The notes under the pieces: model-generated | Told to the model about the DNA's origin: nothing | The model's input: only the letters and a program-made list of their open reading frames with translations | The model's database searches: none | Translations under genes and position numbers: made by a program | IMG/VR virus record: IMGVR_UViG_2526164662_000035 | Span: 1-19,618 of that record | Strand: one strand, 5' to 3' | From: a virus | Taxonomy: Duplodnaviria > Heunggongvirae > Uroviricota > Caudoviricetes | Length of the DNA: 19,618 nucleotides | Shown: in pieces, positions 4,382 to 19,618 of the stretch | How the letters are laid out: the number at the start of each line of letters is the position of its first letter | How positions within the stretch are numbered: the stretch's first letter is position 1

Positions 4382-4585
4382 ATGGATCTGACAGGAAGGT
4401 TTCGAGCGAAAATCTGCAGTTATTCAGTCGTTTTCTTATCGGTCACCATTATTCTTTTAGACATTGATCCTACAAAGCTGCCGCAAAGTTGGTGGTGGGA
4501 ACTGAAGTTGCGTAGAGAAGGGGTCAATACCCGGAGGCACACATGGGCTGGCAAAAGTGTAGCGGTATTAGGCGCAGCTATTTAG
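4382..4585 (+). pseudogene. possible decayed N-terminus of a P4-type (DUF4102-like) tyrosine integrase
   Basis: The ORF MDLTGRFRAKI...DPTKLPQSWWWELKLRREGVNTRRHTWAGKSVAVLGAAI loosely follows the LTDxxIRxxKP...GSxxWxxKYRxxGK...LGxYP pattern of integrases found just downstream of tRNA genes. It is only about 65 aa and the match is weak. Confidence 0.3.
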
Positions 4586-4835
4586 CCTAGTTATGTTTTA
4601 TGAAAACTTGATATCATATAAGTGTCTTACTTATTGGCTGTAAATAAGTTTTTCCTAAGGAATTGTTTCTTGAGTATCATTTGTAACTGTAACGGAATTT
4701 ATAATCCTTTGCTTTATTGTTACGGTATTTTTTATCACACCCTATTTTTTATGTGGTTTTTTATACTGAAGTTTGGCAAAGTGAACTTTATATGCATATA
4801 CTTCATCCTGGTTTCAGTTAAATTGGGTGGATGAT

Positions 4836-5579: not shown

Positions 5580-5583
5580 TCAT

Positions 5584-5848
5584 TGTTCTTGCCCCCTTAT
5601 TTCCAGACAGGGGGTGTATCTTAAGTTAACGTTACCCGCTGACGTCGATATTCTCGCGGAGAGCGATAACCCAACGCACTGTGCGGATGGTTTTCATTGT
5701 AATGTTCGATCGCCACTGCAAGATTATGCAATGCCGTTCTTACATTCGGTTTCGGCATGAACGCGATGTAGTCTTCCTTCATCGTTTTCACGAATCTTTC
5801 TGCCATTCCATTACTCTGAGGACTGCTGATTACCCATGAGGAGTACAA
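5584..5848 (-). mobile_element. IS3-family (IS2-like) insertion sequence remnant: transposase C-terminal fragment plus terminal inverted repeat
   Basis: The minus-strand ORF 5621-5848 reads ...[27 protein letters not shown]...[19 protein letters not shown], which is the end of a DDE integrase-type OrfB. After the stop, ...tgtctggaaataagggggcaagaaca resembles the IS2 end (...TGTCTGGAAATATAGGGGCAAATCCA, from memory). The rest of the IS is missing. Confidence 0.75.
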
Positions 5849-6068
5849 TTAAACGGGTTAATCAGTTTCTCCATTTGAAAGAAAAAAGACTTCTGTACTG
5901 TTTGATATCACCGCTATTTTCTTATTTTCTGTGCAGGTCGTAGTGGGACAAAACTGAGACACATAAGGCCTCACAATGGCTTGCAAGGCTTTACATGTTT
6001 TGATGTGGTGGGACGTGTGAGCGCAGTGTTGATGGGGTAATACTTTGAATTAGAAGCGGATTCTTATG

Positions 6069-6114
6069 ATTCGTAATGCGAAGGTCGTAGGTTCGACTCC
6101 TATTATCGGCACCA
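6069..6114 (+). other. thrW: partial tRNA-Thr(CGU) (thrW): 3' 46 nt from the anticodon loop to CCA; att remnant
   Basis: attcgtaatgcgaaggtcgtaggttcgactcctattatcggcacca equals the 3' part of E. coli thrW as I recall it. The upstream sequence does not match the 5' half (GCCGATATAGCTCAGTTGGTAGAGCAGCGC). Confidence 0.85.
6096..6114 (+). repeat. attL core: 19-bp direct repeat (thrW 3' end)
   Basis: It is identical to 19063-19081. Confidence 0.8.
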
Positions 6115-6721
6115 TCAAGAAAATCAATAACTTAGCTTAACTTCTCTAAGAAATTGTATCTTCTGTTATCACTTACAAACGCCTATACGTTGTTATGGGC
6201 TTTGGTAGTGTAACACGTATGGGCGAGTAGTTCCCAGGCTCAACCTCGTAACAAGTTCCTTTGAAGCTGGAAGACGTGCCACCGTCTCTAAACCTTCTAC
6301 CAAAACTCTTAGCAAGATGTTCCACACCTGGCGCGGTGTCCAATGATGCTACACGTCGAGATGACGTCGCAGAGGATAAACAGGCTAAATGATGGGAAGA
6401 GTTTTAAGTGCAATAGTGGATTAAAGCCCACCTCTTCAAAACCTAACTTGATCGGGAAAGAATCAAGCTCTAGCACGGTTTCGTCCACCGGAGTACAACG
6501 GGTGCCTGATAAGAGAAGAACTGCTAAGACTTCATAGCTTTTGTGAAAAAGCCCTTTTTAGTGGATATGCCTACGGCGCTTATTTTTTGGTATAACCATC
6601 AAAGGCGCTTTATGGCTCCTATTGTCTTGAAAATGTATCTTTACTTGTATTGTGTTTTATGCGTAGTCTCCCTGTGTAGTATGTAACTTGTTAATTTTCA
6701 TATGAATACAGAGGCAACACG

Positions 6722-6874
6722 ATGAAAAACATTGCAGCTATAAAACGTAATAACCGCAAGATTCACGCTCGTAAGTTCCTGTCTACGCCAGAGGGAAAAG
6801 CCTGGCTAGAGCGTAAACAGCGAGAGAACGAAGAAAGAAAACTCCTTAGTGAGTTGAAATGGCTTAAGGATTGA
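6722..6874 (+). CDS. small basic hypothetical protein (50 aa)
   Basis: The ORF encodes MKNIAAIKRNNRKIHARKFLSTPEGKAWLERKQRENEERKLLSELKWLKD. A GAGG lies about 8 nt upstream of the ATG, and a strong hairpin follows the stop closely. It falls below the 60-aa cutoff of the ORF track. Confidence 0.4.
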   Translation: MKNIAAIKRNNRKIHARKFLSTPEGKAWLERKQRENEERKLLSELKWLKD

Positions 6875-6883
6875 ATCACCAGT

Positions 6884-6927
6884 AGGCGCATAACACATCC
6901 AGCAATCAAAGATGTGTTTGTGCGCCT
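6884..6927 (+). terminator. long hairpin downstream of the 50-aa ORF
   Basis: aggcgcataacacatc (6884-6899) pairs with gatgtgtttgtgcgcct (6911-6927) across an 11-nt loop. The stem is about 16 bp with one bulge. There is no clean U-tract; T-rich sequence begins about 20 nt later. Confidence 0.45.
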
Positions 6928-7019
6928 GATAGTGAAATTATTAAAGTTTTTTAGTTAATGTAGCCATTGCATGAACGATGATCGCTAGTGAATCGATTTT
7001 ATCTCGAGGGGTAAAATAG

Positions 7020-7115
7020 ATGAGGTATATGATGGTAACAATTACAGCTAAAGTAATTGTGGTTCTGCAGGTTTTTAAAATGGATAAGATAAAGCGCATA
7101 GATACCCCCTATTGA
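7020..7115 (+). CDS. candidate small hydrophobic peptide (31 aa)
   Basis: The ORF encodes MRYMMVTITAKVIVVLQVFKMDKIKRIDTPY, and GAGGGG lies about 8 nt upstream of the ATG. The only support is the SD-like sequence and the peptide composition. Confidence 0.2.
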   Translation: MRYMMVTITAKVIVVLQVFKMDKIKRIDTPY

Positions 7116-7424
7116 TTTAACAACAACAAGGTATCATTTATTTTTTATTGCATGCAATGTGCAAATTTTCACATATAATAGCTTACTATTCACTTTGCAT
7201 GGTGTCAACAAGATGATGTGTTGTTTTGTTTGATTTGTTCAAGATAATATTTCATTTTCTCATCTATATAACTTGTGTTTTAGATAATTTCACTAATTGT
7301 AAAAGTTACGTATTGCTTAATAGCTGCCTTTTTATCTGAAATCGGCGCAAACGTGATCAATGTTTAACGCGAAGATCAGCGGCGTCAGGTCCACGCAGCG
7401 ACAATTCTCAAATATCAGGAGGCA

Positions 7425-7976
7425 TTACGCTTCCTGCTCTTTCTTGATACGTTGCACCGTCTGTGTGCTGACACTGAAATCTTTTGCTACGCTCCGAATT
7501 GATCCACCATTCGCGAGAGCGGCAACAATTCCCGCTCGATCAATTGCTTTTCCATTACCACGTTTTGCTATACGTCCAGCGGCCTTAGCTGCGGCAATCC
7601 CCTCACGTTGCCGCTCAAGCATCATTTCACGTTCCATTTGTGCCACTGCTGCAAGCACTGTGAGCATCATATTCCCTGCGGGAGAGTTCTTCCCTGTCTT
7701 AAAGTCTTCTTTATGGAAATGCACAGACACGCCGCGCTCTGTTAATTGCTCAACCGTTGCCAGTAGGTCGGCTGTATTACGGCAAAGTCGATCAATGCTG
7801 TGAACATGCAAAACATCACCTTCACGCACATAGTTCATCATTGCCTCAAACTGTGGGCGCTGGGTATTCTTGCCTGACGCTTTATCTTCAAAGACTTTAT
7901 CAAGAGTTACTCCAGCTAATTGACGGTCTGTGTTTTGTTGGACAGTCGATACCCTAATGTATCCAATATTAGCCAT
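7425..7976 (-). CDS. serine recombinase, resolvase type (183 aa)
   Basis: The sequence MANIGYIRVSTVQQNTDRQ...GDVLHVHSIDRLCRNTADLL...AVAQMEREMMLERQREG...C-terminal HTH (SIRSVAKDFSVSTQTVQRI) is collinear with Tn3/gamma-delta resolvase. I prefer the start at 7976 because AAGGA lies 8-9 nt upstream, whereas the ATG at 7982 is too close to the SD. The C-terminal linker (KRGNGKAIDRAGIV) looks like a resolvase rather than an invertase (GRPPKLT). Confidence 0.88.
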   Translation of the reverse strand: MANIGYIRVSTVQQNTDRQLAGVTLDKVFEDKASGKNTQRPQFEAMMNYVREGDVLHVHSIDRLCRNTADLLATVEQLTERGVSVHFHKEDFKTGKNSPAGNMMLTVLAAVAQMEREMMLERQREGIAAAKAAGRIAKRGNGKAIDRAGIVAALANGGSIRSVAKDFSVSTQTVQRIKKEQEA

Positions 7977-7990
7977 TTTCATTTTCCTTC

Positions 7991-8110
7991 TGTGTTGATT
8001 TGTGTGTAGTGATTATTGATCGTGTTGATTAGGTGTGTAAATGACTTTTTTCACTACGAAATTCGAAGGTTTTTAGTGTGGTGATTTAGCCTGCTTTATC
8101 ACTACACGTC
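7991..8110. promoter_or_regulatory. repeat cluster upstream of the recombinase gene: candidate res site / operator region
   Basis: The direct repeat gtgttgatt(t/a)g(t/g)tgtgta occurs at about 7993 and 8022. gtgtagtgat (8004-8013) is inverted relative to atcactacac (8098-8107). Degenerate copies are tcactacg (about 8051) and agtgtggtgat (about 8073). The position immediately 5' of the resolvase gene matches the Tn3-family res layout. Confidence 0.35.
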
Positions 8111-8174
8111 TTGCATGAGAATCATGTAGTTATGCTTTGGTAAAATTAGCAAGCTATTAAATAGCGTGTTTATT

Positions 8175-8196
8175 TTGAAAAAATTAATTTTTTCAA
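8175..8196. repeat. 22-bp perfect AT-rich palindrome ttgaaaaaattaattttttcaa
   Basis: Read directly from the sequence. It is flanked by an imperfect extension (cgtgtt...aacacg). Confidence 0.9.
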
Positions 8197-8504
8197 CACG
8201 TGAAAGGAACTTGTTCGACAAATAATAGATTGATTTTTAATCAACAATTTCTGATAGTGCTCTGTAAGCCACATTACACAAGGCGCAGCGAAAGTGATGT
8301 AAAAGTGAAGAAAGCTAACATTGCACTTTTAAGCTACTTTTCATTGAATTTTTAGTATGGAATTACATAGGGATTAATCATCAATTAATCTTGAATTTAA
8401 GCCTGTTTTAGATGTTTAATTTTTGATAGCAAGAAACACTTTTAGAAGATCATTGCACAGATGTTATGTGATAAATGGATGTAACGGTAGGTCACTGTGA
8501 ACTA

Positions 8505-8641
8505 CCCCCCACAGAATTCTGTTATCCTTAACTTTTAAAGAAATATGCACCCTAACAGAAAACTGTTACCCCAACCCTAACAGAATTATGTTAGACACCC
8601 CCACAGAAAACTGTTAGCCACCCCTACAGAATTTTGTTACC
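8505..8641. repeat. five iterons (consensus CCC-N-ACAGAA-WWNTGTTA-NCC): candidate replication origin
   Basis: The copies are acagaattctgtta (8511), acagaaaactgtta (8555), acagaattatgtta (8580), acagaaaactgtta (8603) and acagaattttgtta (8626). Spacings are 44, 25, 23 and 23 bp, and each copy follows a C-run. A strongly AT-rich stretch follows at 8642-8710. Confidence 0.8.
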
Positions 8642-8711
8642 TATTAGATCAACTATCAAACTACAATTAAATTATCTTTTATAAATTCTTTTATCTTTAA
8701 AGAATAATTAT

Positions 8712-8746
8712 AGGGATACCCGTTAGGGGAGTCTTCGACTATCCCT
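8712..8746. other. compact multi-hairpin element next to the iterons and AT-rich tract
   Basis: An outer stem agggata/tatccct encloses ccc-gtta-ggg and agtc-ttc-gact hairpins. This was read directly from the sequence and the function is unknown. Confidence 0.4.
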
Positions 8747-9500
8747 TAATCTATTGGCATTCGCCAGAACCTTGCACAAGTTAGAGTGTTAGTCGTTAGA
8801 CTGCTTGTCATAACACATAGTTTTTTGTTTGTTGATGTTAGTTAGTAGATCTATGTTCGCTAATGCCGCTCACAACGAATATGTAATCTACTATGTGCAA
8901 ATAGCCTACGGCTTGCGTAAGGCTAAATAGTCTTGCGCTGTGCGCAGAACGATAATTAACTAACTACCATCTAACGATCATCAATCTATTTAAGAGAAAA
9001 TCTATTGTGCAATACTCTGACGAGTGCAATAACCTTGTGTGCTACGCGTTAGCGATGTTAGCACATAGACACAGACAACAACCAACAACAAACAAAAAGA
9101 ATGGTTTTAGTAGTTGAAGGTTAAATAAGATTCTACCGCTTAAATCAAGCCGTAGGCGAGCTAAACGTATATAAGGTAGGGAAACACTTAGCGGTAATAG
9201 ATTAGCTCGTTATAGAGTTTCTGAGAGCTTTGCAGGTATTTTATAAGATGTCTGAAATTAGATTTTATCTATCATCATCTTCCCATATACCTAACAAATA
9301 CAAAATAACCCCCTTAAATAAGCCTCTGGCGAGCTAAACAGCCATTACATAAGGGAATGTATTGTTTTTATCAAAACCTCGTTAGAACGCGTTTTAGAGC
9401 GTTTTAGACAATAATAAAGAATAGCACTACACATGAGAGCACGAATTGCTAAGAAATATCATAACTTACTGAAAATGATCAATATTTATATGGATAGGGG

Positions 9501-9529
9501 TTGACAAAAGCTTTTAGTCGTGGTAAAGT
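9501..9529 (+). promoter_or_regulatory. sigma-70-type promoter of the early operon
   Basis: TTGACA (9501-9506) and TAAAGT (9524-9529) are separated by a 17-bp spacer. This is the only near-consensus -35 element upstream of the 9650 operon. Confidence 0.55.
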
Positions 9530-9539
9530 AATATTAGGG

Positions 9540-9558
9540 ACAGAAAACATTCTTATCC
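9540..9558 (+). promoter_or_regulatory. iteron-like sequence overlapping the predicted transcription start (candidate autoregulatory operator)
   Basis: acagaaaacattcttatcc shares acagaaaac with iterons 2 and 4 and ...ttatcc with iteron 1. It lies 11 nt downstream of the -10 element. Confidence 0.4.
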
Positions 9559-9582
9559 TCTAAGTAATTAAACCAATGCACC

Positions 9583-9624
9583 GCACTTTGAAGCCCAAGG
9601 CTTGCAAGGTGTCTTTTTCTTTTA
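9583..9624 (+). terminator. intrinsic-terminator-like hairpin and U-tract in the leader of the early operon (attenuator candidate)
   Basis: The stem pairs 9584-9595 with 9599-9611 (aagcc/ggctt plus 7 more pairs, one bulged G, loop caa). It is followed by tctttttctttt. It lies between the promoter and the AGGAGG RBS at about 9637. Confidence 0.55.
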
Positions 9625-9649
9625 ACCAAATAGAATAGGAGGTTAATTA

Positions 9650-9850
9650 ATGAAGTATTACACTCCACAGGATGTAATCGAAGCCTGGAAACGTGGTGAG
9701 ATCAATCGTTTTAAAGTAAGGATGAACAGGAACACAGCGCGACGCTGTGGTTATCCAGAGCGTGAAAAATGCTTTGACGATGCACTAAAAATTATTGATG
9801 AATTAAGAAAAAATGAAAAAGGATCTGAAAAAGAATCTGAAACAGAGTAA
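9650..9850 (+). CDS. hypothetical protein (66 aa), first gene of the early operon
   Basis: A strong AGGAGG SD lies 7 nt upstream. The protein has a charged C-terminal tail and no motif I recognise. Confidence 0.6.
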   Translation: MKYYTPQDVIEAWKRGEINRFKVRMNRNTARRCGYPEREKCFDDALKIIDELRKNEKGSEKESETE

Positions 9851-9869
9851 AGAAGAGAAGGAGAAAACT

Positions 9870-10040
9870 ATGAGCGAAACTACAGAAAAGAAAAGACAAC
9901 CACGCACTTGCTTTCATATTCCTGATGAAGTATTTCAGGTGTTGTTTAAAGAAGCCAGAAGTAAACGTATCACTGTTACAGATTACATTCTTGATATGTT
10001 GAAAAGAGAGGCTGAAACACTCTCAAACAAAAGCAAGTGA
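9870..10040 (+). CDS. putative ribbon-helix-helix (CopG/Arc-like) DNA-binding protein (56 aa)
   Basis: The start at ATG 9870 follows GAAGGAG. The sequence RTCFHIPDEVFQVLFKEARSKRITVTDYILDMLKRE fits a beta-alpha-alpha RHH layout. The longer ORF from 9813 overlaps the previous gene and lacks an SD. Confidence 0.55.
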   Translation: MSETTEKKRQPRTCFHIPDEVFQVLFKEARSKRITVTDYILDMLKREAETLSNKSK

Positions 10041-10093
10041 TTTTTATCACCATAGTAGCGCCGTAGAGCGTGATTACATCAAGGAGATTTTTA

Positions 10094-10663
10094 ATGATTA
10101 ATGAAGAACAATTTGTAAAAGTTCCTATGTGGATTCTAAAAATAAGCCAAGTAAACGGGCATAAATTTACAGATAGTGCTAAAAACCTTTACTGCTATTT
10201 GAGAGGGTTTGATCGTGCATTTCCCTCTTACGCTAAGATAGGCGATGTTTTTGGCATAACACCAAGAGCAGCAGAAGAAAGGGTTAAGAAATTGCTCGAA
10301 ATGGGATTAATTATAAAAGATGCACGACCAGGAAGCTCTAACCTTTATCGAGTGCTTGATATTCCAAAAGGAGAATCATCACTACCTGATCCTTCTGAGA
10401 AAGAAGACGAATCTAATGAAATATTGAATGTTTCCGAAATCATCGTTGAAGAAGAAACACAGGAATCAGAGTTCCCTGAGCGGCCCGAAATTTTTACTTG
10501 GCTTCTTTCCCTTGATAAGAAGAAACCACCGCACGAAGAAACAGAAGATTTTGTAAAACGTGCATTAGATTCAAAGAATATCTATCTTGAGAAACAGGCT
10601 TTTCACGATCTGATAATATCTCTAAGAGAAAAAAGTGAAATATACGATTCAATACCATTCTAA
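10094..10663 (+). CDS. winged-helix DNA-binding protein, candidate replication initiator / iteron-binding protein (189 aa)
   Basis: The start at 10094 follows AAGGAG. FVKVPMWILK...AKNLYCYLRGFDRAFPSYAKIGDVFGITPRAAEERVKKLLEMGLII resembles the N-terminal wHTH of phage/plasmid Rep and replication-O-type proteins, followed by an acidic linker. It lies downstream of the iterons. The functional call is an inference. Confidence 0.55.
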   Translation: MINEEQFVKVPMWILKISQVNGHKFTDSAKNLYCYLRGFDRAFPSYAKIGDVFGITPRAAEERVKKLLEMGLIIKDARPGSSNLYRVLDIPKGESSLPDPSEKEDESNEILNVSEIIVEEETQESEFPERPEIFTWLLSLDKKKPPHEETEDFVKRALDSKNIYLEKQAFHDLIISLREKSEIYDSIPF

Positions 10664-10672
10664 GGAGAATAA

Positions 10673-10942
10673 ATGACTTATAACATCACTATAGGAAACA
10701 AAACTATTGAAATAACTGAAAGCGGATACAACATTTTAAAAGCTATTTTGGACATAGAGTTCTCACCCCCGACAGTGGTTAGCTTTTGTAGTTTAGGCGG
10801 CTACAGCGCACAACATGTGAATCATTGGTTAAACCATTTTACATCGTTCGGTGTGCTGGATTATGAAGGGATTAACCACACTACATTTCGTCTTTTGAAA
10901 TTAAACAAAGATTTTGAATTGTTTATCACAAACAATCAATAA
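10673..10942 (+). CDS. hypothetical protein (89 aa)
   Basis: An AAGGAG SD is present and the gene is tightly packed after the previous one. No motif recognised. Confidence 0.55.
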   Translation: MTYNITIGNKTIEITESGYNILKAILDIEFSPPTVVSFCSLGGYSAQHVNHWLNHFTSFGVLDYEGINHTTFRLLKLNKDFELFITNNQ

Positions 10943-11038
10943 CAACAGATCGGGCAATACATATGGCAAATGCATTTATGGCGATATTCATCGTAACAAT
11001 GGTATCAAGTTTTTATAATCCACATAAAAAGAGAGAAA

Positions 11039-11422
11039 ATGGGAAGAAAGAAAAAGAACAACTTAAAACGTATTGAAAAAAACAGTAACTTCAATTCAAC
11101 AAGACAACGTCCACCGACACACACCAATAACGAAATTCCAGGGGAAGAGATAATATTTATTCTTGAAACAGAATCCCCTGAAATAAGCGATGAAGAACAA
11201 GAAATAATCAAATCAATGCCAGGCGTTTACTTTCGCCCAAGAACAAGAAAACAAACAATAATTTCTGATGGCACTCTGAAACGTTGGCAGCTTTTAGGGT
11301 TTAGCTCCTATCATCATTTTTTGGGATTTAACGCTTTCAATAATTGTGTAGGTGGTGCATCGGAAGTCGATCTGATGGCTCATTTAGAAGCTACATTAGC
11401 TTCTAACAAACGCTCTAACTAA
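11039..11422 (+). CDS. hypothetical protein (127 aa) with a basic N-terminus and an acidic middle
   Basis: The ORF is on the operon strand and starts MGRKKKNNLKRIEK.... No motif recognised. Confidence 0.5.
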   Translation: MGRKKKNNLKRIEKNSNFNSTRQRPPTHTNNEIPGEEIIFILETESPEISDEEQEIIKSMPGVYFRPRTRKQTIISDGTLKRWQLLGFSSYHHFLGFNAFNNCVGGASEVDLMAHLEATLASNKRSN

Positions 11423-11437
11423 TAAAAGGATGGTCGT

Positions 11438-11683
11438 ATGTATAAGCGCCCAATGAAAATATTCGAAAAAGGAAAAATAATGATTGGCTATATTCAAGAA
11501 ACACAATTATTTCAGATGATCCTGTCTGATGCAAAAAACTATGCTGAGTTAATCCGACTGGCAAAAGAAACAGAAGACTACGAAGCATTAGAGCGTTATC
11601 GTGATGAAGTGCTGACGCTCAAGACACCTTTTAACATCGTATTGAATATGATTAATGATGCATTACAAGGAGAAGCCGCATAA
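11438..11683 (+). CDS. hypothetical protein (81 aa)
   Basis: An AAGGA SD is present, and the stop overlaps the next start (ATAATG at 11680-11685). Confidence 0.55.
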   Translation: MYKRPMKIFEKGKIMIGYIQETQLFQMILSDAKNYAELIRLAKETEDYEALERYRDEVLTLKTPFNIVLNMINDALQGEAA

Positions 11684-11991
11684 TGGAAGAAGATATTAGC
11701 AATGCAATGGAACAACTTTTAGATCTGACTATCTCACTACAAACAAGAATAAATCAAGCCTATTCAGATTTATGCGATTACACGCTCTCTCAATGCGTTA
11801 TTAGCTTAATGAAGGTGAATGTAAGCCTTGACGATTTTATCTCTCTGGTGAGCGATTTAGAGCTAATTGAGGACGATGCCAAGATGTGCACTCAAACCAT
11901 CACAGACACCGCCAGCACGTTAAAGGCTGCAAGTGAAGAGATTCAGCAATTAGTAGATGATTTAGCAAAAAGTGCTATTCCCTCTAAATGA
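11683..11991 (+). CDS. hypothetical acidic helical protein (102 aa), last gene of the early operon
   Basis: It is translationally coupled to the previous ORF. No motif recognised. Confidence 0.55.
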   Translation: MEEDISNAMEQLLDLTISLQTRINQAYSDLCDYTLSQCVISLMKVNVSLDDFISLVSDLELIEDDAKMCTQTITDTASTLKAASEEIQQLVDDLAKSAIPSK

Positions 11992-12263
11992 TAATGAAAA
12001 TCATTTGCATTTATATAATAAAAATGTTATATTTGTATTAAGGGTAGATAAAAAGGTTTTGACTGGTGTTAATCCTTCTACTGTCATAAATCCCTGCATA
12101 TGGAAGGTGATAGCCTCAAGGGTTGAGTGGCATTAACCTCTAACAAATATTACCTTCCATCTCTCAAGAAGTTTTAGAATAATCATAACTCCCTCTTTGA
12201 TTGTTGATTGTTTCTACGTTGTGTTGATGAATGTTGTTAGGCATTGTGCTTAATTTTGATAAA

Positions 12264-12308
12264 AGCGGGTAGGTGTTATCTCCTTGCCCTTCCCGCTCTT
12301 ATTTTTCA
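12264..12308 (+). terminator. possible terminator after the early operon
   Basis: agcggg (12264-12269) pairs with cccgct (12292-12297) and is followed by cttatttttc. The loop is long (22 nt), so confidence is moderate to low. Confidence 0.35.
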
Positions 12309-12734
12309 TCTATGCTTATCCTAAAGCTCCTTATTTTGTCCGAAAACATTAAAGAGCCTTACACTGATAGTTATATTTTATAACTATTTACTAACATCAT
12401 TAAACTCTTATTTAATGACAGAAGTTAGTAACAGAATAATCTATTAAGTTGTTGTCAAAAAACTATCATCTGCATAGCGTTAGCCGCAAGCAGAGAGAGT
12501 TTAGCTAAGAATTGTGCAATAACCTTTGGAAATATTGATAGCAAAACGGGTTTTATAGACTGCAAATCTATAATCTTTGGTTGTAAAAACGCTTTTTCTG
12601 AAACGGTAGATTATTGTTGGTGTAGTTAATCCCTATTAAAATTTAATCTGTGAGTAGATTGGAATAGTGATTCCTTAAAATCTGACTGGTGCATCCACAC
12701 CATGAAAGATAGCGGTTAGCCACCGCACCCGAAT

Positions 12735-12790
12735 AGATATTCCTGATTGATTCCGCATGTTTTCCTAAGAGCATGTTTTCAGGAATATCT
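12735..12790. repeat. 12-bp perfect inverted repeat with a 32-nt spacer
   Basis: agatattcctga (12735-12746) pairs with tcaggaatatct (12779-12790). The spacer contains two copies of gcatgttttc, and a third agcatgttt lies near 12815. Confidence 0.85.
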
Positions 12791-12894
12791 GTTCACCCTT
12801 TAAACCTATCTTTAAGCATGTTTAATAAGCATTCTTAGAGATACGTTTAAAACCTCCTCAAGGTTTTACTTATCGCTGTGTATTGCCCGACACG

Positions 12895-12954
12895 TTAATA
12901 AATCCCCCTCGCTATTCTCAGATTGAACCTCTTATAGCCTGGGGGATTTATTAA
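12895..12954. repeat. 14-bp perfect inverted repeat with a 32-nt spacer, about 30 nt upstream of the capsid-module first ORF
   Basis: ttaataaatccccc (12895-12908) pairs with gggggatttattaa (12941-12954). Confidence 0.85.
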
Positions 12955-12982
12955 ATTCCAACATAATGGAATCGTTATATAA

Positions 12983-13192
12983 ATGAAACAAGAAATTATC
13001 CTGAAATATGGCAATGAAAAGTTAACACTAACTGAAGATGTGTTGAATGCTACAGCCTACGCGCTTGGTATCACTCCCACAGAATTAAAGAAACAGTGTG
13101 AACGTCTTTATAAGGCTGAAAGCAATAAACCATCTCACCAAGATTTGATTAATGCTAAAGCTCAACAAATCAAACAATCTAAGGAAAAATAA
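12983..13192 (+). CDS. hypothetical protein (69 aa) preceding the head genes
   Basis: The ORF is on the strand of the structural genes, and its stop overlaps the next start (TAATG at 13189-13194). No obvious SD is present. Confidence 0.45.
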   Translation: MKQEIILKYGNEKLTLTEDVLNATAYALGITPTELKKQCERLYKAESNKPSHQDLINAKAQQIKQSKEK

Positions 13193-13566
13193 TGGCTATT
13201 TTAAAATTAAGCGATGTTTTCCTACATCGTAAAAGCATCACTGACGTAGTGAGCTATGCAACCGACCCTTACGCGGCTGTAGAAAGCAAAAAATTTGCAG
13301 CACTTGCACAAGATGTAACGTGCGGCGACCTCATTGATTCATCCGGCGCTAAATATGTTAGCGGCGCTGATGTTCTTGTCGTTGTGTCTGACTTCGTAAC
13401 TGCTGATTCAAATAAAACAGTTAACGTGCTTCGTGCTAATGCCGGACTCGTTTGCATCAAAGCTGATGCCCTGAATGCCGAAGGCGCTGTAAAAGAAGCT
13501 GCTATTGCAGCTCTCGCTGCTAAAGGCTTCCAGCTTGAAGGCTTCCACTCTGTTTTCACATCTTAA
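13192..13566 (+). CDS. putative head decoration protein (lambda gpD-like position and size, 124 aa)
   Basis: The protein is small and Ala/Val/Gly-rich and sits immediately upstream of a gpE-like major capsid gene, mirroring the lambda D-E order. The call rests mainly on synteny and composition. Confidence 0.5.
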   Translation: MAILKLSDVFLHRKSITDVVSYATDPYAAVESKKFAALAQDVTCGDLIDSSGAKYVSGADVLVVVSDFVTADSNKTVNVLRANAGLVCIKADALNAEGAVKEAAIAALAAKGFQLEGFHSVFTS

Positions 13567-13582
13567 GAAGGAATAAATAATA

Positions 13583-14611
13583 ATGATTATCGGAAATGAA
13601 GTGGTTGATCTTGCTCCACTGTTCGAATTAAACGACTCACGCAATTACCTACTGTCTACTCTGGATTTTACTGATCCTGTGCCTGTAGAAAGTCACAAAG
13701 TGGCTGTTTCCCAGCTTATCGAGAGCAATGAATCTCTGTTCAACCATCCTACAAGCCGTTTTAGCTCTGAGCATAACGTTACTAAGCGTGAGAACGGGGA
13801 AGAATATCTTATTGAAATCCCGTACTTTTTAAGGGAAGACCTGATCAAACCGCAGGACGTGCAAGGCAAACGCAAAGCCGGAAGCTCTATTGAAGAAACA
13901 CTGCCGGATCTGTATGCGGAATATATCGCTAAACACAATGTTGCATTCCAGCGCACTAAAGAAAGCATCCTCGCGGCTTCTCTGTTCTCTGGCAAGACAC
14001 ACACCCCGAAAACTGACGATGTTCTGATCGATTACAGCACTCTGTTCGGTGTGTCTCCAATGACTGCAACCGTTGACGCATCCAGCACCAACACAATGAC
14101 CGTATTCAAGCAATTTGATCAGATGCATACGGATATGATTGCTAAGGCACAAAGCCAGGCTGCAACCATTGAGCGTGTTGTTGTGTTCTGTAAACCTGCG
14201 GCATTCAACGCTATTCGTTACAGCGTTGGCATGGTTAATGCGTTCCAGTATGCAAGCCCTGTAGACGATGCAAACGTGGTGTTTAATGTGCGTTCTCTGC
14301 TGCCTGGTGTAACTACTTTCACCATTCCAGGAACTAACATTGACCTGATCAAAGTGACTGATCCGCTGCTGCTGGCACATATGACCGCTGACGCTGTAGC
14401 TATTCCTAAACTTGCTAAGGGGGCAGGTGTTTACCAAGCTATTTTTGGTGCGCCTTCCAGTTCATTCGATCTGCTGTCTCAAGGCGCTAAAGAGTATTAC
14501 AGCTATGCTTTCGAATCGAATCGCGGCGACGCAGTGCACGTAGTGACCGAGAATAGCTCGCTTGTGGTTAACCACGGTGTTGGCTTCTCTGTGCAGATCA
14601 CAGTAGCGTAA
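13583..14611 (+). CDS. major capsid protein, lambda gpE-like (Phage_cap_E-type), 342 aa
   Basis: Its length is nearly the same as lambda gpE (341 aa). The N-terminal NYLLSTLDF...VESHKVAV and IEIPYFLREDLIKPQDVQGKR segments follow the pattern of E-family capsids as I recall them. The C-terminal ...GFSVQITVA resembles lambda ...FVSVQLA. A GAAGGA SD is present. Confidence 0.72.
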   Translation: MIIGNEVVDLAPLFELNDSRNYLLSTLDFTDPVPVESHKVAVSQLIESNESLFNHPTSRFSSEHNVTKRENGEEYLIEIPYFLREDLIKPQDVQGKRKAGSSIEETLPDLYAEYIAKHNVAFQRTKESILAASLFSGKTHTPKTDDVLIDYSTLFGVSPMTATVDASSTNTMTVFKQFDQMHTDMIAKAQSQAATIERVVVFCKPAAFNAIRYSVGMVNAFQYASPVDDANVVFNVRSLLPGVTTFTIPGTNIDLIKVTDPLLLAHMTADAVAIPKLAKGAGVYQAIFGAPSSSFDLLSQGAKEYYSYAFESNRGDAVHVVTENSSLVVNHGVGFSVQITVA

Positions 14612-14621
14612 AAAGTGTTAA

Positions 14622-14720
14622 AGACGTTCCCCTACGTCTGGAAATAATCGGGGCAATAAGGGTAAGGGATAATCATATAAGCAAAATATGCGCTGTCTCT
14701 TGCCCTTTTTGTTTTTCTAC
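14622..14720 (+). terminator. hairpin(s) and a long T-tract downstream of the capsid gene
   Basis: A perfect hairpin agacgt/acgtct lies at 14622-14639. In addition, gggcaa (14651-14656) pairs with ttgccc (14700-14705) and is followed by tttttgttttt. The second stem has a very long loop. Confidence 0.35.
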
Positions 14721-14763
14721 TGTCTACAAACCTAAATAAAAATATATATGTGAGAGAAAACCA

Positions 14764-14961
14764 ATGAACACAGAAAATTCACAGGCATTAATTCTTAAAT
14801 CTGTAAAAGAACTGGCAGCTATTAGCGATGACTCAATAATCAATGTCAGTGCCTTATGCAGAATGCTTTCAATTGATGCAAATAATGTGCGTCAGCGTGT
14901 CTTTCAGACTGGATGTAGCACTTTCGAAGCAATCCAATATTATTGCTCTAAAAAACAATAA
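14764..14961 (+). CDS. hypothetical small protein (65 aa), possibly HTH-like
   Basis: The ORF lies between the capsid and tape-measure-like genes and has a weak GAGAG SD. No firm motif recognised. Confidence 0.45.
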   Translation: MNTENSQALILKSVKELAAISDDSIINVSALCRMLSIDANNVRQRVFQTGCSTFEAIQYYCSKKQ

Positions 14962-14995
14962 CAAATAACAATCATAATACAGGGAAACAATTAAC

Positions 14996-16837
14996 ATGTT
15001 AGAGCTAAACGTGGCACGCCTCTCGAACGTTGTCACCTTCGAAGTTAACCGACCATCATTAGAGAAAGCAAAAGCAGAAGTAGAAAAACTTCGTAAACAA
15101 ATGGCGGCGGTGAAAGATATAGAATTGCGTGTTAAGACACATAAACAATCAACCGCTAAAGCAAAAAAAGACGTAGACGATATTGCTAAAAAGCAAGCAC
15201 AGGCTGATAAAGCTAATGCTAAAGCACAATTAGCCGCTCAACGTGTAGTTGCAAGAGAACAAAAAGCCCTGGCAGCACGCAAAGAGAAGGCAGAATTAAA
15301 GCTTTTAGACGTTGGAGCAAGCATTAGTGCAATGCACCGTCTTTCTGTAGCGGAACAATATAAAGCTATTGCACAGGCTAGAGAAATTGCCCTCCAATAT
15401 GAAAGAGGCGCTATTAGTCTGGCACGTATGAATAGCCAAATGAAACGCCTACAACAGCAACAACGTAAGATTAATGGCAATCGTAACGCTCACGCTAAAG
15501 CCTATGCACCTGTTAAGGGTAGCGGGAGTATTGGCGGCGGTGCTGCGGCTGTTATGCTGGGTGGCTTAGGCGCTGGCGCTACGTATATGGCTATGAGCAA
15601 AGCCTCTGAATTTGTTACTAACAGCTTTGCGAATGCTGAAACGCTGGGTGAATTGTATAGCCGTGCGAAGCTGGGCGGTGTAGACGTTAACCAGATGAAC
15701 AATATTGAGCAATGGGCCTACAAAAACGGCGTTGATTCAATGATGGGCGAACAAGGTCGTAGGAAGTATCTCGATCAGATGAAAGATGTACGGGAGAAGG
15801 CTACTAAATCTTATGATGAGGCTGAATATGTAGTTGATAAGAAAACTGGTAAAGGAGAATGGAAGGGCGGCGATAGCGGCATCAATACTTTAATGAATGA
15901 AGGATTCCTAACTAAAAAGGATCTAAAAGACTTTGCTGATAATCCGGCTGGTCTGGTTAGTAAAGCAGTTCAGGGAATGGTAGCTAAAGGCTATTCAGAT
16001 GCACAAATCGGTAGTCGTCTGGAAGATCTGGCTGATGATTTGATGCTCACCTCTAAATACTGGACACGCTCCGCTAAAGAAGTGGAACAATCAGCACGAG
16101 AACAACGAGAATCAGGGCGCTGGGTAACGCAGGCACAACAGGAAAGCGTTATTAAATTCCGTGAACTGAATAATGCACTTAGTGGGCTTTCTGACTCACA
16201 AGGGATCGCCTTTGTTGATGGCTTTATGAAATCTCTTGATCCGAAAGTGATTGAAGAGTTTAAAAAGAGCATGGTTGCAATGCTGCCAATGTTTACCAAA
16301 TTAGGCGAGGCTATCGGCGGATTGGTTAACGCCGTAATGAAAACAATCAACTGGCTGATGAAAAACGACGAGAAGACGGAAGCTATTCAGAAGAATTTAG
16401 GGGATGCACCGCCACTATCTAACGAAGGAATGAAGCAGAATCTTTCTAATCTCACTCCTGATCAATATAAAGGCGCTGGCACCGGAACAACTAAGCCAGA
16501 TAACAGCAATTCCCTGGTTAACACTATTAAAAGCTGGTTTATGCCAGAAGAAACGGTAGGTGGGGCGCAGGCTGTAAATCAATACAGTCTCGAAGGACAA
16601 AATATTGCAAATCTGAAACAGAGTGCAGCACAACAAGCTTTCAAGGCTCCTTCTTACACCTTTGCACCTGTTATTAACTTCAATCCAGAATTACAAGTAA
16701 ATGCAGAAGTGCCGCTAACTATCGAATCAGACACCGGACGATTGAGCGAATTTATCGACTTCAAATCAAAGGCATCTTCCGCTGAGTTTAGCAAGCTATT
16801 AACGCTGGGTGTTATGTCAGGCGGGTCAACCTATTAA
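14996..16837 (+). CDS. tape-measure-like protein (613 aa)
   Basis: It has an N-terminal Lys/Ala/Gln-rich coiled-coil region, a Gly-rich hydrophobic segment (GSGSIGGGAAAVMLGGLGAGATYMAM), a long helical middle and a C-terminal ...FAPVINFNPELQVNAEVPLTIESD block. This is the typical organisation of phage tail tape measure proteins. The call rests on composition and architecture only. Confidence 0.6.
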   Translation: MLELNVARLSNVVTFEVNRPSLEKAKAEVEKLRKQMAAVKDIELRVKTHKQSTAKAKKDVDDIAKKQAQADKANAKAQLAAQRVVAREQKALAARKEKAELKLLDVGASISAMHRLSVAEQYKAIAQAREIALQYERGAISLARMNSQMKRLQQQQRKINGNRNAHAKAYAPVKGSGSIGGGAAAVMLGGLGAGATYMAMSKASEFVTNSFANAETLGELYSRAKLGGVDVNQMNNIEQWAYKNGVDSMMGEQGRRKYLDQMKDVREKATKSYDEAEYVVDKKTGKGEWKGGDSGINTLMNEGFLTKKDLKDFADNPAGLVSKAVQGMVAKGYSDAQIGSRLEDLADDLMLTSKYWTRSAKEVEQSAREQRESGRWVTQAQQESVIKFRELNNALSGLSDSQGIAFVDGFMKSLDPKVIEEFKKSMVAMLPMFTKLGEAIGGLVNAVMKTINWLMKNDEKTEAIQKNLGDAPPLSNEGMKQNLSNLTPDQYKGAGTGTTKPDNSNSLVNTIKSWFMPEETVGGAQAVNQYSLEGQNIANLKQSAAQQAFKAPSYTFAPVINFNPELQVNAEVPLTIESDTGRLSEFIDFKSKASSAEFSKLLTLGVMSGGSTY

Positions 16838-16884
16838 TCATCACTGTGGGGCGGTTTAGCCCCCTTAAATAAGGATTACAAATT

Positions 16885-17562
16885 ATGGCAATGGGTCCGT
16901 TAACCATTGGTCGCCCGACTGAGGCGAAAATCAACAGCACAAGCAACGATAGCAACGGTAGAACAACTAAAGGGGGTAACGGCTTTGCGATCATTACCTC
17001 TAACCTCGGCAGTGGTGCAAATGCTGCTTACAATGACTACCAGGCATTATCATTTGATAGCGTGGAATCGACGAAAATTAGCCGAAATGCAGACGTTACA
17101 AGCTATGCCGTCGAATCAGGATCAGAAGTTAGTGATCATGTTCAAATACGGAATAACAAGTTCACATTACAGGGGCGTATCTCTGAAACAGTATTGAAGC
17201 TCAATCCCGATATGATTAAGAATGCGGGAATTAACGGCAATAGACGTATGCTTATGCTTGAATACCTAAATCAGTTGATGGACAGTCGCCAACCTTTCCT
17301 ACTTGTCACTGAGTTAAAAAATTATGACAACGTTGTGTTAGTTGGCATGTCTTACGAAGAAGAAGCAAGCGAAAGCCTATTGTTTACTCTTGATTTTGAG
17401 CAAATCCGTCTTGTCTCTAAAGCAACTACAAGCGCAATTGCGGTAAAAACAGCACCAAATAAATCTGTAGGAGGTCAGGTTAAAATGCAGGTAAATACAA
17501 CAGAACAGAAAAATCAAAAAAGCCCAGGGCAAGACGTTGTAACGCCAGTATTTAAACAATAG
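16885..17562 (+). CDS. putative tail-tip/baseplate (Dit-like or Mu gp43-N-like) protein (225 aa)
   Basis: It lies directly after the tape-measure-like gene. The segment SFDSVESTKISRNADVTSYAVESGSEVSDHVQIRNNKFTLQGRIS resembles the N-terminal motif of Dit-like / DNA-circulation-type tail proteins (xFxxVxxxxxxxxxxVTxHPVExGxxVxDHxxxxPxxLxLxGxVS), as recalled from memory. Confidence 0.4.
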   Translation: MAMGPLTIGRPTEAKINSTSNDSNGRTTKGGNGFAIITSNLGSGANAAYNDYQALSFDSVESTKISRNADVTSYAVESGSEVSDHVQIRNNKFTLQGRISETVLKLNPDMIKNAGINGNRRMLMLEYLNQLMDSRQPFLLVTELKNYDNVVLVGMSYEEEASESLLFTLDFEQIRLVSKATTSAIAVKTAPNKSVGGQVKMQVNTTEQKNQKSPGQDVVTPVFKQ

Positions 17563-17603
17563 CCTTAAACACCTATGAAACGCTCTGTAACGAGATAATC
17601 ATA

Positions 17604-17635
17604 AAAGAGGCATTAGTCTATATTGAAGCCTCTTT
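17604..17635. terminator. bidirectional hairpin between the convergent structural operon and the integrase
   Basis: aaagaggc (17604-17611) pairs with gcctcttt (17628-17635) across a 16-nt loop. A- and T-rich flanks lie on both sides. Confidence 0.5.
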
Positions 17636-17642
17636 ATTACGT

Positions 17643-18920
17643 CTATAGCGTTGTTTTACGCCTTAAATTTGATTTTTTATTGATTGATAAGCCTTTCTCT
17701 ATTTCAGGGTAGCGTAAAAGCTCAATATATTTTTTAAGCTCTACTGGAGAAGCTGCATTCTTGCTATATGTGCGGAATGTTTCTGTATTGCCGCGCTGAT
17801 GGCCCAAAATTAAAGCTATGCGGTCCTCTGGAATTTGATTTCGATCAAGAAGCTGTGCTACTCCGTGTCTCAGAGAATGAAACACTTTCCTTTCTGTTCC
17901 CTTTTCCCCTAAAGCCTTTCGTTTAGCTCTTGTAAATCGTTGTGTATGCCACGTAGAGCGTTTACCGTCAGCACGTTCTGTAATGCTGGCGTGATAGAAC
18001 AAAAAGCCATTGTGAGGCTTTTCACGAAGAGATAACACCAATGGAGTGATAAGGCTATGCACAGGCACAAGACGTGCCGCAGCTTTCGTTTTTCCCTGTG
18101 TGATTTCAAAACACAGCACACCTTCGATCTCTTTCACATCGTCTATTGTGAGACTTGCTATCTCATTGATCCGCATACCTGTATATAAACCGATAAGACA
18201 CAAAGCCGTCATTTCTTTGTTTTCTGCTGAATTACCGGAAAATACTTGCAACACCTGCAATAGCTCTTTGTTAGAAAATGCCTCGTAGCTCTCTCTACTT
18301 TGTGCCACATCAAGCCTATGCCCTCGCCAGGGGGAGAGCGCCCTTTCTGGCGCATCGTGGTAACGTGATGAAGCTAATTCCCATAGCTGGGCCATTGGGC
18401 TGATATAATTTGCAATTGATTGTTGTGAAAGAGTTTTTTGCATGTGTTCAATCCAGCCTGTAACAGTGGTGCGGCTTACATCTTGCAATGCAATATCAGG
18501 CTTTTTACGGTAGGAGAGAAACATCTCTACCGCTTTTCTTGCCTTAGCTAAAGTGGCTGGCTTCTTCTTCGTGCTGTTAATTGTCAGGTAGATTTCAAGA
18601 ATTTTAAGCAATGACGGACACGAAGACGCTGTATCTTGCATTCTGGTAGCTGTTTTGGCGTATTTAGCCTTACTGCGTAACAGTTCCAGCGTGTTTTCTA
18701 TTGTGCTGTTTACAGGGGCAACACTCTCCCGTAAGCAATGGTATTCATCTGCAATCTGATCACGCTTTCGACGTGCCACACGAAGATTACTTGTGTGTAG
18801 ACTTCTGACAAACGTCCTTTTTCCTTCAAAAAAGGGCTGCATATACACAGGCAGCGTGATCCTTAAATAGTAGTTACCGTAAGAATCACAGATTAAGTAT
18901 TGGTTAGGCTTGTATCTCAT
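17643..18920 (-). CDS. tyrosine recombinase / phage integrase (425 aa from the preferred start)
   Basis: The catalytic signature is present: ...LYTGMRINEIASL..., ...HSLRHGVAQLL..., ...ILGHQRGNTETFRTYSK (R...HxxR...H...Y). I prefer the start MRYKPNQY at 18920, which has GGAG 5 nt upstream; the ORF is open to 19007. The gene lies about 140 bp from the right att repeat. Confidence 0.9.
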   Translation of the reverse strand: MRYKPNQYLICDSYGNYYLRITLPVYMQPFFEGKRTFVRSLHTSNLRVARRKRDQIADEYHCLRESVAPVNSTIENTLELLRSKAKYAKTATRMQDTASSCPSLLKILEIYLTINSTKKKPATLAKARKAVEMFLSYRKKPDIALQDVSRTTVTGWIEHMQKTLSQQSIANYISPMAQLWELASSRYHDAPERALSPWRGHRLDVAQSRESYEAFSNKELLQVLQVFSGNSAENKEMTALCLIGLYTGMRINEIASLTIDDVKEIEGVLCFEITQGKTKAAARLVPVHSLITPLVLSLREKPHNGFLFYHASITERADGKRSTWHTQRFTRAKRKALGEKGTERKVFHSLRHGVAQLLDRNQIPEDRIALILGHQRGNTETFRTYSKNAASPVELKKYIELLRYPEIEKGLSINKKSNLRRKTTL

Positions 18921-19020
18921 AAAATCTCCGGCTAAAGTGTCGGAGCGTTTGTAATGTGAAAATTGATTGTGACGCATAGAAAATGATGATTTTTCTATAA
19001 GATTCAATCAATTAGTAATG

Positions 19021-19081
19021 GTCGTAGGTGATGGCATTAACACGAGATTAATCGAGTGTTTTACTCCTATTATCGGCACCA
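19021..19081 (+). other. attR region: interrupted thrW 3'-end copy (gtcgtaggt + 33 nt + actcctattatcggcacca)
   Basis: Bases 19063-19081 are identical to 6096-6114 and to the thrW 3' end. Bases 19021-19029 (gtcgtaggt) match the thrW nucleotides that precede TCG-ACTCC. The 3-nt TCG is replaced by the 33-nt gatggcattaacacgagattaatcgagtgtttt. Confidence 0.75.
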
Positions 19082-19207
19082 TTAAAATCAAAGAGTTACC
19101 CCATATTTAAATACACCACGTTTCCTCCTGTGCCGCATTTGTGCCATTGTAACCTTGGCAATTCATCAAAATACTGTTCTGACATCAGGCAGTGCAGGTG
19201 CAGCTAT

Positions 19208-19618
19208 TTAAACCAATTGCTGCCGCCATTCTTTGACGTAGTCAATCAGGGCGCGGAGCTTTGGTGCAATATTGCGACGCTGTGGGAAATACAGATAGAA
19301 GCCCGGAAATTGTGGAAGAAAGTCATCAAGCAGCGATACAAGCTTACCGCTTTCAATATATGGCCTGAAAGTTTCCTGAGTGGCAATTGTTATTCCTCCG
19401 CCGGCAAGAGCCAGCCTCACCATCAGACGCAGATCATTAGTCGTAATCTGCGGTTCAATCGCAAGGTCGAAAGTTCTCCCGTTTTCTTCAAATGGCCAGC
19501 GATAAGGCGCAACCTCCGGGGACTGACGCCAGCCGATACACTTATGGGTATTTCCCCCGGAGGCGAGAAAGCGCTCTCCACGCCCGGCCGCAAGGATCAG
19601 GACGACGGGGGCAGGCAT
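19208..19618 (-). CDS. yagP: LysR-family C-terminal fragment fused to an unrelated N-terminal segment (136 aa); chromosomal flank
   Basis: The C-terminal ...GGGITIATQETFRPYIESGKLVSLLDDFLPQFPGFYLYFPQRRNIAPKLRALIDYVKEW is a LysR effector-domain end, and no N-terminal HTH is present. The N-terminal MPAPVVLILAAGRGERF looks like a nucleotidyltransferase start. The 411-bp size and the position just outside a thrW-derived att beside an integrase match my memory of yagP next to intF/ptwF in E. coli K-12. The ATG is the last codon of the window. Confidence 0.6.
   Translation of the reverse strand: MPAPVVLILAAGRGERFLASGGNTHKCIGWRQSPEVAPYRWPFEENGRTFDLAIEPQITTNDLRLMVRLALAGGGITIATQETFRPYIESGKLVSLLDDFLPQFPGFYLYFPQRRNIAPKLRALIDYVKEWRQQLV

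Follow-up and report, generated by a model that had tools for sequence, protein, structure and literature searches.

In Vibrio cholerae, the satellite PLE takes the coat protein of phage ICP1 and uses a scaffold of its own, TcaP, to make the capsid smaller (PMC10945586); PLE itself has no capsid gene. Capsid-forming PICIs (cf-PICIs), besides their capsid gene, encode a terminase, a prohead protease and head-tail adaptors together with alpA and Pri-Rep, and only the tails come from their temperate helpers (PMC10448857). A further group of elements was described by Barth, Dunham and Seed in 2023 (PMC10448857), who started from the RepA_N-T5orf172 proteins of three phages (Inny, Muut, Mt1B1_P17). 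These elements are ~13 kb long, flanked by attachment (att) sites, and located beside tRNA genes or in lysR; 224 of them were listed as putative satellites. They encode a decoration protein (Dec), a major capsid protein (MCP), a tape measure protein (TMP) and a baseplate gene, and lack terminase, prohead protease, alpA, adaptors and Pri-Rep. The present work concerns a stretch of 19,618 nucleotides (IMG/VR record IMGVR_UViG_2526164662_000035, positions 1 to 19,618; hereafter the window), in which a 69-aa open reading frame (ORF), a decoration protein gene and a capsid gene form the head module of an integrative element, 12.97 kb long, that is inserted at thrW. Judged from its sequence, this element essentially certainly belongs to the family of PMC10448857, and it is best read as a satellite that supplies its own coat.

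The element at thrW and its published family

Window bases 9000-19618 (10.6 kb) are 99.9% identical to the thrW / yagP-paoABCD locus of E. coli CAU16175 (CP047378). This strain is among the satellite carriers of PMC10448857, whose Table S6 lists CP047378.1 with a length of 12,897 bp. The spacing of the thrW repeats that bound the element in the window, 12.97 kb, agrees with that value. A preliminary description of this DNA had spoken of what, if confirmed, would be "a distinct hijacking strategy", but both the element family and its interpretation as satellites had already been published in 2023, as a bioinformatic prediction (PMC10448857). What is new with respect to that publication is the gene-by-gene homology to the Stephanstirmvirinae, the selection analysis, the fold of the decoration protein, the wider range of hosts, the prevalence, the covariation of iterons with Rep alleles, and a satellite allele that is cognate to the second RepA_N domain of certain phage nucleases.

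The virion genes of the element

Only four genes of the element are recognizable from their sequences as virion genes: those for the decoration protein, the major capsid protein, the tape measure protein and the tail-tube initiator (Table 1). The first two follow the 69-aa ORF in a tightly packed block. The TAA of the 69-aa ORF (13190-13192) overlaps the ATG of the 124-aa ORF (13192-13194) within a TAATG at 13190-13194, and the 342-aa gene begins after a 16-nt gap (13567-13582, GAAGGAATAAATAATA) that contains a GAAGGA Shine-Dalgarno sequence, an arrangement that the preliminary description had located correctly.

Its profile match makes the 342-aa product a major capsid protein of the HK97 type. 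It scores 65.3 bits against Pfam PF03864 Phage_cap_E (gathering cut-off 22.9, E 6.3e-18), and because its residues 19-341 align with profile positions 14-329 of 329, the match is full length, which removes the earlier reservation that a profile search might reveal no capsid fold. Its sequence also matches the PDB chains 21uy_N (Phi92_gp124, the solved phi92 capsid chain) and 9zbi_A, and its alignment with phi92 gp124 (25% identity) runs from one end to the other.

The assignment of the 124-aa protein is less direct. It has no direct match in Pfam or PHROG, Pfam HDPD included, and sequence and profile comparisons with phi92 gp123 were not significant, the only common feature being a C-terminal ...VFTS. 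A profile of its family, when searched against 1.84 billion representatives, reached proteins of 111-122 aa, some of which match phrog_2680 'head decoration', the PHROG to which phi92 gp123 belongs. A first AlphaFold model from a shallow alignment was unusable (pLDDT 60, Foldseek E >0.2); using a deeper alignment that contained the profile-reached sequences, the pLDDT was 84.6. The top four Foldseek matches of this model are 123-124-aa chains from the Sf14 and Bas63 capsids (probability 1.00, TM 0.59-0.63), and the next match has an E of only 0.41. It is on the grounds of size and place that the Sf14 and Bas63 accessory chains are read as decoration proteins. Taken together, the transitive profile links and the predicted fold identify the 124-aa product as a probable head decoration protein; with the Phage_cap_E match of its neighbor, this bears out the coat and decoration pair of the preliminary description.

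The two tail proteins are more readily placed. The 613-aa protein is 26% identical over 559 aa to phi92 gp134, a tape measure protein (E 4e-26), and matches PDB 21vq_V. Identities of the 225-aa protein are 49% with phi92 gp135 and 53% with phAPEC8 gp103; its PDB matches are 21vq_N and 9cuy_K, the latter labelled 'tube initiator' by its depositors. Scans of the element's ORFs with Pfam, PHROG and NCBIfam gave no match to portal, protease, scaffold or terminase families, and the element has no ORF of the size of a portal or a large terminase; it holds several other small ORFs without assignment, the largest of 127 aa. The pair has no portal, protease, scaffold or terminase gene beside it, as first described, but it is neither an "orphan" nor an isolated block, because the 65-aa ORF, the tape measure gene and the tube-initiator gene continue downstream on the same strand.

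The flanks of the head module had been described as free of ORFs and bounded by terminator-like elements. Upstream this is so: the 846 bp at 12137-12982 contain no ORF of at least 50 aa, and the hairpin at 12895-12954 has a minimum free energy (MFE) of -30.6 kcal/mol (z -5.67), which none of 200 shuffles equalled. In a second, 73%-type E. coli element (L006), the equivalent place also holds a terminator. The upstream hairpins (12895-12972) insulate the head module from the genes before it. On the other side, the hairpin that follows the capsid gene is also distinct from shuffled sequence (MFE -34.4 kcal/mol, z -4.55, 0 of 200), but the ORF-free DNA extends for only 152 bp. phAPEC8 likewise has an annotated terminator directly after its capsid gene.

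The sequence TTATATAAATG is found at 12973-12985, overlapping the first start codon of the head module, and again at about 9400-9413 of L006; it is common to the two E. coli elements even though their small proteins are only 28% identical. Its resemblance to a -10 or T4-late-like TATAAAT box suggests that a promoter and the annotated start overlap here. A special late-promoter motif common to element and helper was considered and set aside, since the structural genes of phapecoctaviruses have ordinary sigma-70-like promoters.

Relationship to Stephanstirmvirinae phages

When the capsid and tape measure proteins were compared against 50,697 phage genomes, the best matches were ~150-kb virulent myoviruses: phi92, phAPEC8, other phapecoctaviruses, justusliebigviruses and their relatives. 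In phi92 the gene order is scaffold, decoration, MCP ... chaperones, TMP, gp135, so that two separate parts of this structural module, Dec-MCP and TMP-tube initiator, have their mirror image in the element. In addition, 355 bp of the Rep gene are 99% (99.2%) identical at the DNA level to phapecoctavirus Mt1B1_P17. By these sequence comparisons, the relatives of the element are the Stephanstirmvirinae (phi92/phAPEC8-type virulent myoviruses) rather than lambdoid phages.

The preliminary description had called the pair lambda D/E-type, and in that framing the element would be a satellite of a lambdoid phage that uses a lambda-type portal and scaffold. Part of the label holds, in that the capsid protein belongs to Phage_cap_E, the family of lambda gpE. 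Two distant relatives of the 124-aa protein (P0131 and P0133) also touch Pfam PF02924 HDPD, the family of lambda gpD, at a sub-threshold 20-25 bits (cut-off 29.1), and a lambdoid-type tail fibre remnant lies upstream of the element. However, the capsid protein, the tape measure protein and the tube initiator all find their best phage matches in ~150-kb myoviruses or their relatives (25-53% identity to phi92 and phAPEC8), the DNA that the element has in common with phages is phapecoctavirus DNA, and the counter-nucleases described below are found in Stephanstirmvirinae. A lambdoid helper is therefore very improbable, and the link to lambda D and E appears to hold at the level of Pfam superfamilies only.

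Conservation and prevalence

The capsid protein family comprises 51 clusters, and its named sources are all Enterobacterales; full-length members are 341-348 aa long and 39-98% identical. The loci in Serratia, in Klebsiella and at the second E. coli site have the same layout, in which a small recombinase gene is followed by an iteron-bearing non-coding region, the Rep-like gene, one small ORF with Dec and MCP, another small ORF with TMP, a tube initiator that may be present or absent, and an integrase. Eight further species-level genomes repeat this layout, adding Buttiauxella, Kluyvera, Scandinavium, Citrobacter and Enterobacter, and overall the family extends to at least ten other enterobacterial genera. 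A tblastn search of 20 family loci, with up to 10 kb of flanking DNA, found no homologue of the phi92 TerL, portal, scaffold, sheath, tube or hub.

The ratio dN/dS, computed between the two E. coli element types, is 0.106 for MCP, 0.12 for the tube initiator, 0.17 for TMP and 0.20 for Dec. Of 5426 complete E. coli genomes, 393 (about 7%) have the capsid gene, always on the chromosome and in up to three copies per genome, and in 378 of the 393 carriers it is full length. Because of this full-length retention and of dN/dS values of 0.1-0.2, these are working genes and not the pseudogene-like relics for which the preliminary description had allowed, although individual copies do decay. The substitution pattern indicates that the virion genes are under purifying selection across the Enterobacterales.

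One could still ask whether the element is a decayed remnant of a phi92-like or other prophage in which a few structural genes were left by chance. Damaged copies do exist, such as one in sequence type 131 (ST131) that has received an IS1, and the window adjoins another prophage remnant. Yet the same compact gene set and order recur from Serratia to E. coli over the whole range of capsid identities just given, the virion genes are under purifying selection, and random decay would not repeatedly spare the identical four. Moreover, the Stephanstirmvirinae are virulent, with genomes of 145-150 kb and no integrase in the regions examined. A chance remnant is scarcely credible on this evidence.

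Phage nucleases with Rep domains of the element family

A second line of evidence comes from the phages themselves. The Mt1B1_P17 protein QNJ49226 (328 aa; L008:3042-4028) has three parts. Its N-terminal domain is identical at 104 of 105 residues to the N-terminal 105 aa of the Rep-like protein in the window, which Barth et al. (PMC10448857) term RepA_N type; the second domain is again a winged helix, and the third, at the C-terminus, is an endonuclease (phrog_681, 2.4e-18, with weak matches to Pfam MUG113 and T5orf172). The justusliebigviruses Inny (L021:1438-2541) and Muut (L022:1399-2397) encode homologous nucleases with other first domains, that of Muut being 64-74% identical to the Rep allele of another family member (L016). 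The second domain, for which PMC10448857 reported no detectable satellite match, is in all three nucleases 83-91% identical to the Rep N-terminal domain of two members, L014 (6641-7309) and L015 (7179-7910). Each nuclease may thereby target two satellite replicon types.

Across family members the iteron sequence covaries with the allele of the Rep DNA-binding domain, the Rep proteins being modular; in the window the iterons are of the type ACCCYNACAGAAWWCTGTTA, and with allele B they are of the TAGGAAnnnnTTCCTA type. The Klebsiella relative (L004/L005) has, at 5138-5403, two adjoining sets of four 32-bp iterons with the cores GGTGTCAAAATGGCACC and ACATACATCAAAATGATGTA; it also carries a Dam-like methylase gene and is without a tube-initiator gene. 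From these sequence relations, the DNA-binding domains of the phage nucleases are copies of Rep alleles of the element family, which is the signature of an arms race. The logic resembles that of ICP1 Odn, a nuclease whose RepA_N domain is a copy of PLE's and which cleaves the origin iterons of PLE.

A model for the element

The predicted role of the family, that of a satellite or parasite of Stephanstirmvirinae, has good support in the comparisons above. In the proposed mechanism, infection by such a phage would cause the element to excise and to replicate from its iterons. The element would then express its own coat and decoration proteins, giving a shell suited to about 13 kb of DNA, while the portal, the terminase, any scaffold or protease, the sheath, tube, baseplate and fibres would be taken from the helper. 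Its own tape measure protein and tube initiator would prime the tails, and the element would spread at the expense of the phage. Co-assembly on a helper portal and the smaller capsid are both inferred. The mechanism as a whole (own shell, borrowed portal and terminase, tails seeded by the element's TMP and tube initiator) is considered fairly probable. Of the preliminary interpretation, the class of a satellite with its own coat thus stands, but the kinship to lambda and the claim to newness do not, and the tail genes had been missed.

A different use of the same genes can be envisaged, in which the element is an interference-only island: its diverged capsid protein, tape measure and tube initiator would poison the assembly of the phage and protect the bacterial population, and the element itself would not be packaged. 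The tube initiator, at 49-53% identity, is close enough to enter phage baseplates; interference of satellite genes with tail assembly is a known theme of defence (PMC11364771); and counter-nucleases would be selected against any harmful island, mobile or not. Conversely, co-assembly with the coat of the phage is improbable for a capsid protein of 25% identity, no PADLOC defence model was matched, and the element is mobile, since it occupies several integration sites in many species. Its integrase, att sites and replication module, together with the tight 12-14-kb range across genera, fit packaging into small heads. Pure interference is for these reasons rather unlikely, although it retains an appreciable chance.

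Several observations weigh against a packaged satellite with its own coat. The capsid protein is only 25% identical to that of any sequenced phage, and therefore its compatibility with the portal and scaffold of a helper is uncertain; the true helper could be a phage that has yet to be sequenced. No packaging signal was identified in the element, an 81-bp stretch described below being the only candidate, and no promoter was obvious on inspection before the head module. The Klebsiella and Serratia relatives lack the Dit-like gene, and it is consequently not essential to the family. In some records PGAP labels the Rep-like protein 'LexA family regulator', and it could be a repressor instead of an initiator. 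Some copies are decaying, including that of ST131 at thrW (L031, NZ_CP103710.1 3725713-3744067), in which IS1 replaces the tape measure gene. Finally, no experimental follow-up (induction, packaging or transfer) was found in the literature, a search that left subscription journals mostly uncovered. In the same ST131 copy, the tube-initiator gene is reduced to a fragment.

Taken jointly, two features would set the element apart: a hybrid form of hijacking that is so far undemonstrated in satellites (own shell on a stolen portal, with own TMP and initiator seeding stolen tails) and its pairing with nucleases of dual specificity. The combination is given somewhat less than an even chance. If the satellite prediction holds, the system would be the E. 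coli counterpart of PLE and ICP1, a satellite of large virulent phages and an easily testable analogue. Phapecoctaviruses and phi92-like phages, the likely helpers, are often isolated with a view to therapy and biocontrol, and their host range and efficacy would be influenced by any resident island able to hijack or block them. A satellite with only coat, decoration, tape measure and tube-initiator genes would, on the same condition, also offer a tractable model of how a foreign coat is fitted to the portal and motor of another virus.

Boundaries, replication module and other features

Table 1. Positions of features in the window (window coordinates)
Feature	Position	Strand	Basis
Tail fibre C-terminus (neighbour prophage)	37-852		Pfam/PHROG scan
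Tail fibre assembly protein (neighbour prophage)	852-1187		Pfam/PHROG scan
O-acetyltransferase fragment (neighbour prophage)	1872-2525	-	
LEM-3-like GIY-YIG protein (neighbour prophage)	3237-4061	-	phrog_5356
AraC-family regulator (neighbour prophage)	4827-5579		
Left attachment repeat, 3' end of tRNA-Thr (thrW)	6091-6118	+	Direct repeat D6
Non-coding phage-like stretch	7339-7421	.	~81% identical to phapecoctavirus non-coding segment
Small serine recombinase, resolvase/invertase type	7425-7982	-	Pfam Resolvase 1.1e-38, phrog_125 2.3e-62
Five ~23-bp iterons	8504-8642	+	Repeat search
Rep-like winged-helix protein	10094-10663	+	HTH_36, phrog_270 'replication initiation'
Stable terminator-like hairpin and small second hairpin	12895-12972	+	Folding vs shuffles
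69-aa ORF	12983-13192	+	ORF list
124-aa head decoration protein gene (predicted)	13192-13566	+	AlphaFold/Foldseek, profile links
342-aa HK97-fold major capsid protein gene	13583-14611	+	Pfam Phage_cap_E
Terminator-like hairpin 3' of capsid gene	14650-14715	+	Folding vs shuffles
65-aa ORF	14764-14961	+	ORF list
613-aa tail tape measure protein	14996-16837	+	phrog_16051 6.3e-31
225-aa tail-tube initiator (Dit-like baseplate protein)	16885-17562	+	Pfam Dit_like 1.6e-27
Tyrosine integrase	17643-19007	-	Pfam Phage_integrase 4.3e-17, DUF6538, SAM-like domains
Right attachment repeat, partial thrW copy	19058-19085	+	Direct repeat D6

The two attachment repeats are 89% identical over 28 nt. Their core also borders family members in four other loci (L001, L015, L016 and L018), and in strain CAU16175 thrW is present at the position of the left repeat. 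In that strain PGAP gives the integrase a shorter, 425-aa start. The Klebsiella and Serratia relatives have a short tyrosine recombinase in place of the serine recombinase. The five iterons of the window are the probable origin and Rep-binding site. Among the IMG/VR matches there were no free 13-kb contigs, the matches being prophage-region calls from genomes, and the ends of a 12.3-kb Logan contig (L007) do not overlap by as much as 11 bp, so that neither source gave a packaged or circular copy.

The phage-like stretch of 81 bp, with the core CGTCAGGTCCACGCAGCGACAATTCYCAAATATCA, lies just downstream of the serine recombinase gene. Its counterpart is inside a ~1.7-kb non-coding region of >60 phapecoctavirus genomes, and it is present in the thrW-type elements L001, L012 and L013 and partially in L014 and L015. 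It gave no fold better than shuffled sequence, and Rfam detected no RNA family anywhere in the window. It could be a packaging, origin or regulatory site common to element and phages; the first of these ideas is speculative. A position near the ends of several phage records had seemed a hint of packaging, but the 'second copy' in WPEC4 is a 328-bp assembly overlap.

The two small ORFs that accompany the capsid genes have no detectable relatives beyond the element family. At the position of the 69-aa ORF, an ORF of 66-74 aa is found in Serratia, Klebsiella and E. coli, with 13-30% identity among the four loci compared; to judge by these sequences, the position holds a fast-evolving ORF that is kept across the family. 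The 69-aa ORF has no family match in Pfam, PHROG, PADLOC or NCBIfam, a word-based homologue search returned only near-identical copies, and a comparison with the phi92 scaffold gave no similarity. That it is a mini-scaffold or a size determinant is only a guess. The 65-aa ORF has counterparts of 62-67 aa at the same position in all family loci and no family match in Pfam or PHROG; set against phi92 gp133, it gave no similarity. Together with its counterparts in L003, L004 and L006 it has a helix-turn-helix-like core (e.g. INVSALCRMLSIDANNVRQRV), and its place, with the capsid gene before it and the tape measure gene after it, is that of a tail chaperone gene in the phage. It may encode a regulator or an excision factor instead of a virion protein.

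Another prophage, whose end occupies window positions 1-6090, is integrated in tandem with the element at thrW. At the other side of the element, a truncated LysR-family gene at 19208-19618 (yagP-like, with the substrate-binding domain only) adjoins its right end, as it does in CAU16175, where it is annotated as a pseudogene. Scans of the window with the PADLOC defence models and NCBIfam added nothing useful.

Comparison with known systems

The structural modules of phi92 and phAPEC8 share with the element the order and homology of decoration-MCP and of TMP-tube initiator, as well as a terminator after the capsid gene. They differ in that the phages have a complete set (TerL, portal and scaffold; neck, sheath and tube; chaperones; and hub, wedges and fibres), whereas the element retains four structural genes, which have diverged to 25-53% identity. 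With lambda gpD and gpE the element has in common a Phage_cap_E coat and a decoration protein gene immediately upstream of it; the relation is remote, however, and the 124-aa protein itself has no HDPD match and finds its structural neighbors in the Sf14 and Bas63 capsids.

Among satellites, the cf-PICIs are similar in that they encode an HK97-fold capsid protein of their own, which goes beyond remodelling that of a helper. The thrW element differs from them in carrying two tail genes and in yielding no match, in Pfam, PHROG or NCBIfam, to a terminase, portal, protease, adaptor, alpA or Pri-Rep of its own. The resemblance to PLE is of another kind. Both are small integrated elements tied to a large lytic myovirus (ICP1 for PLE, a predicted helper for the element); both have RepA_N proteins, iterons and exchangeable replicon alleles; and in both cases the phage answers with a chimeric T5orf172/GIY-YIG nuclease that bears the DNA-binding domain of the satellite's Rep. 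PLE is distinguished by the absence of a capsid gene, by TcaP and by its Vibrio/ICP1 setting, whereas the element resides in E. coli, has its own coat, decoration, tape measure and tube-initiator genes, and uses a tyrosine integrase. With the satellites of PMC10448857 all the described features match: the Rep domain, the length of ~13 kb, the att repeats, the position adjacent to a tRNA gene, the tyrosine integrase, the genes for Dec, MCP, TMP and a baseplate protein, and the lack of a terminase, a prohead protease, adaptors, alpA, Pri-Rep and most tail genes; in the element itself no difference from that family was found.

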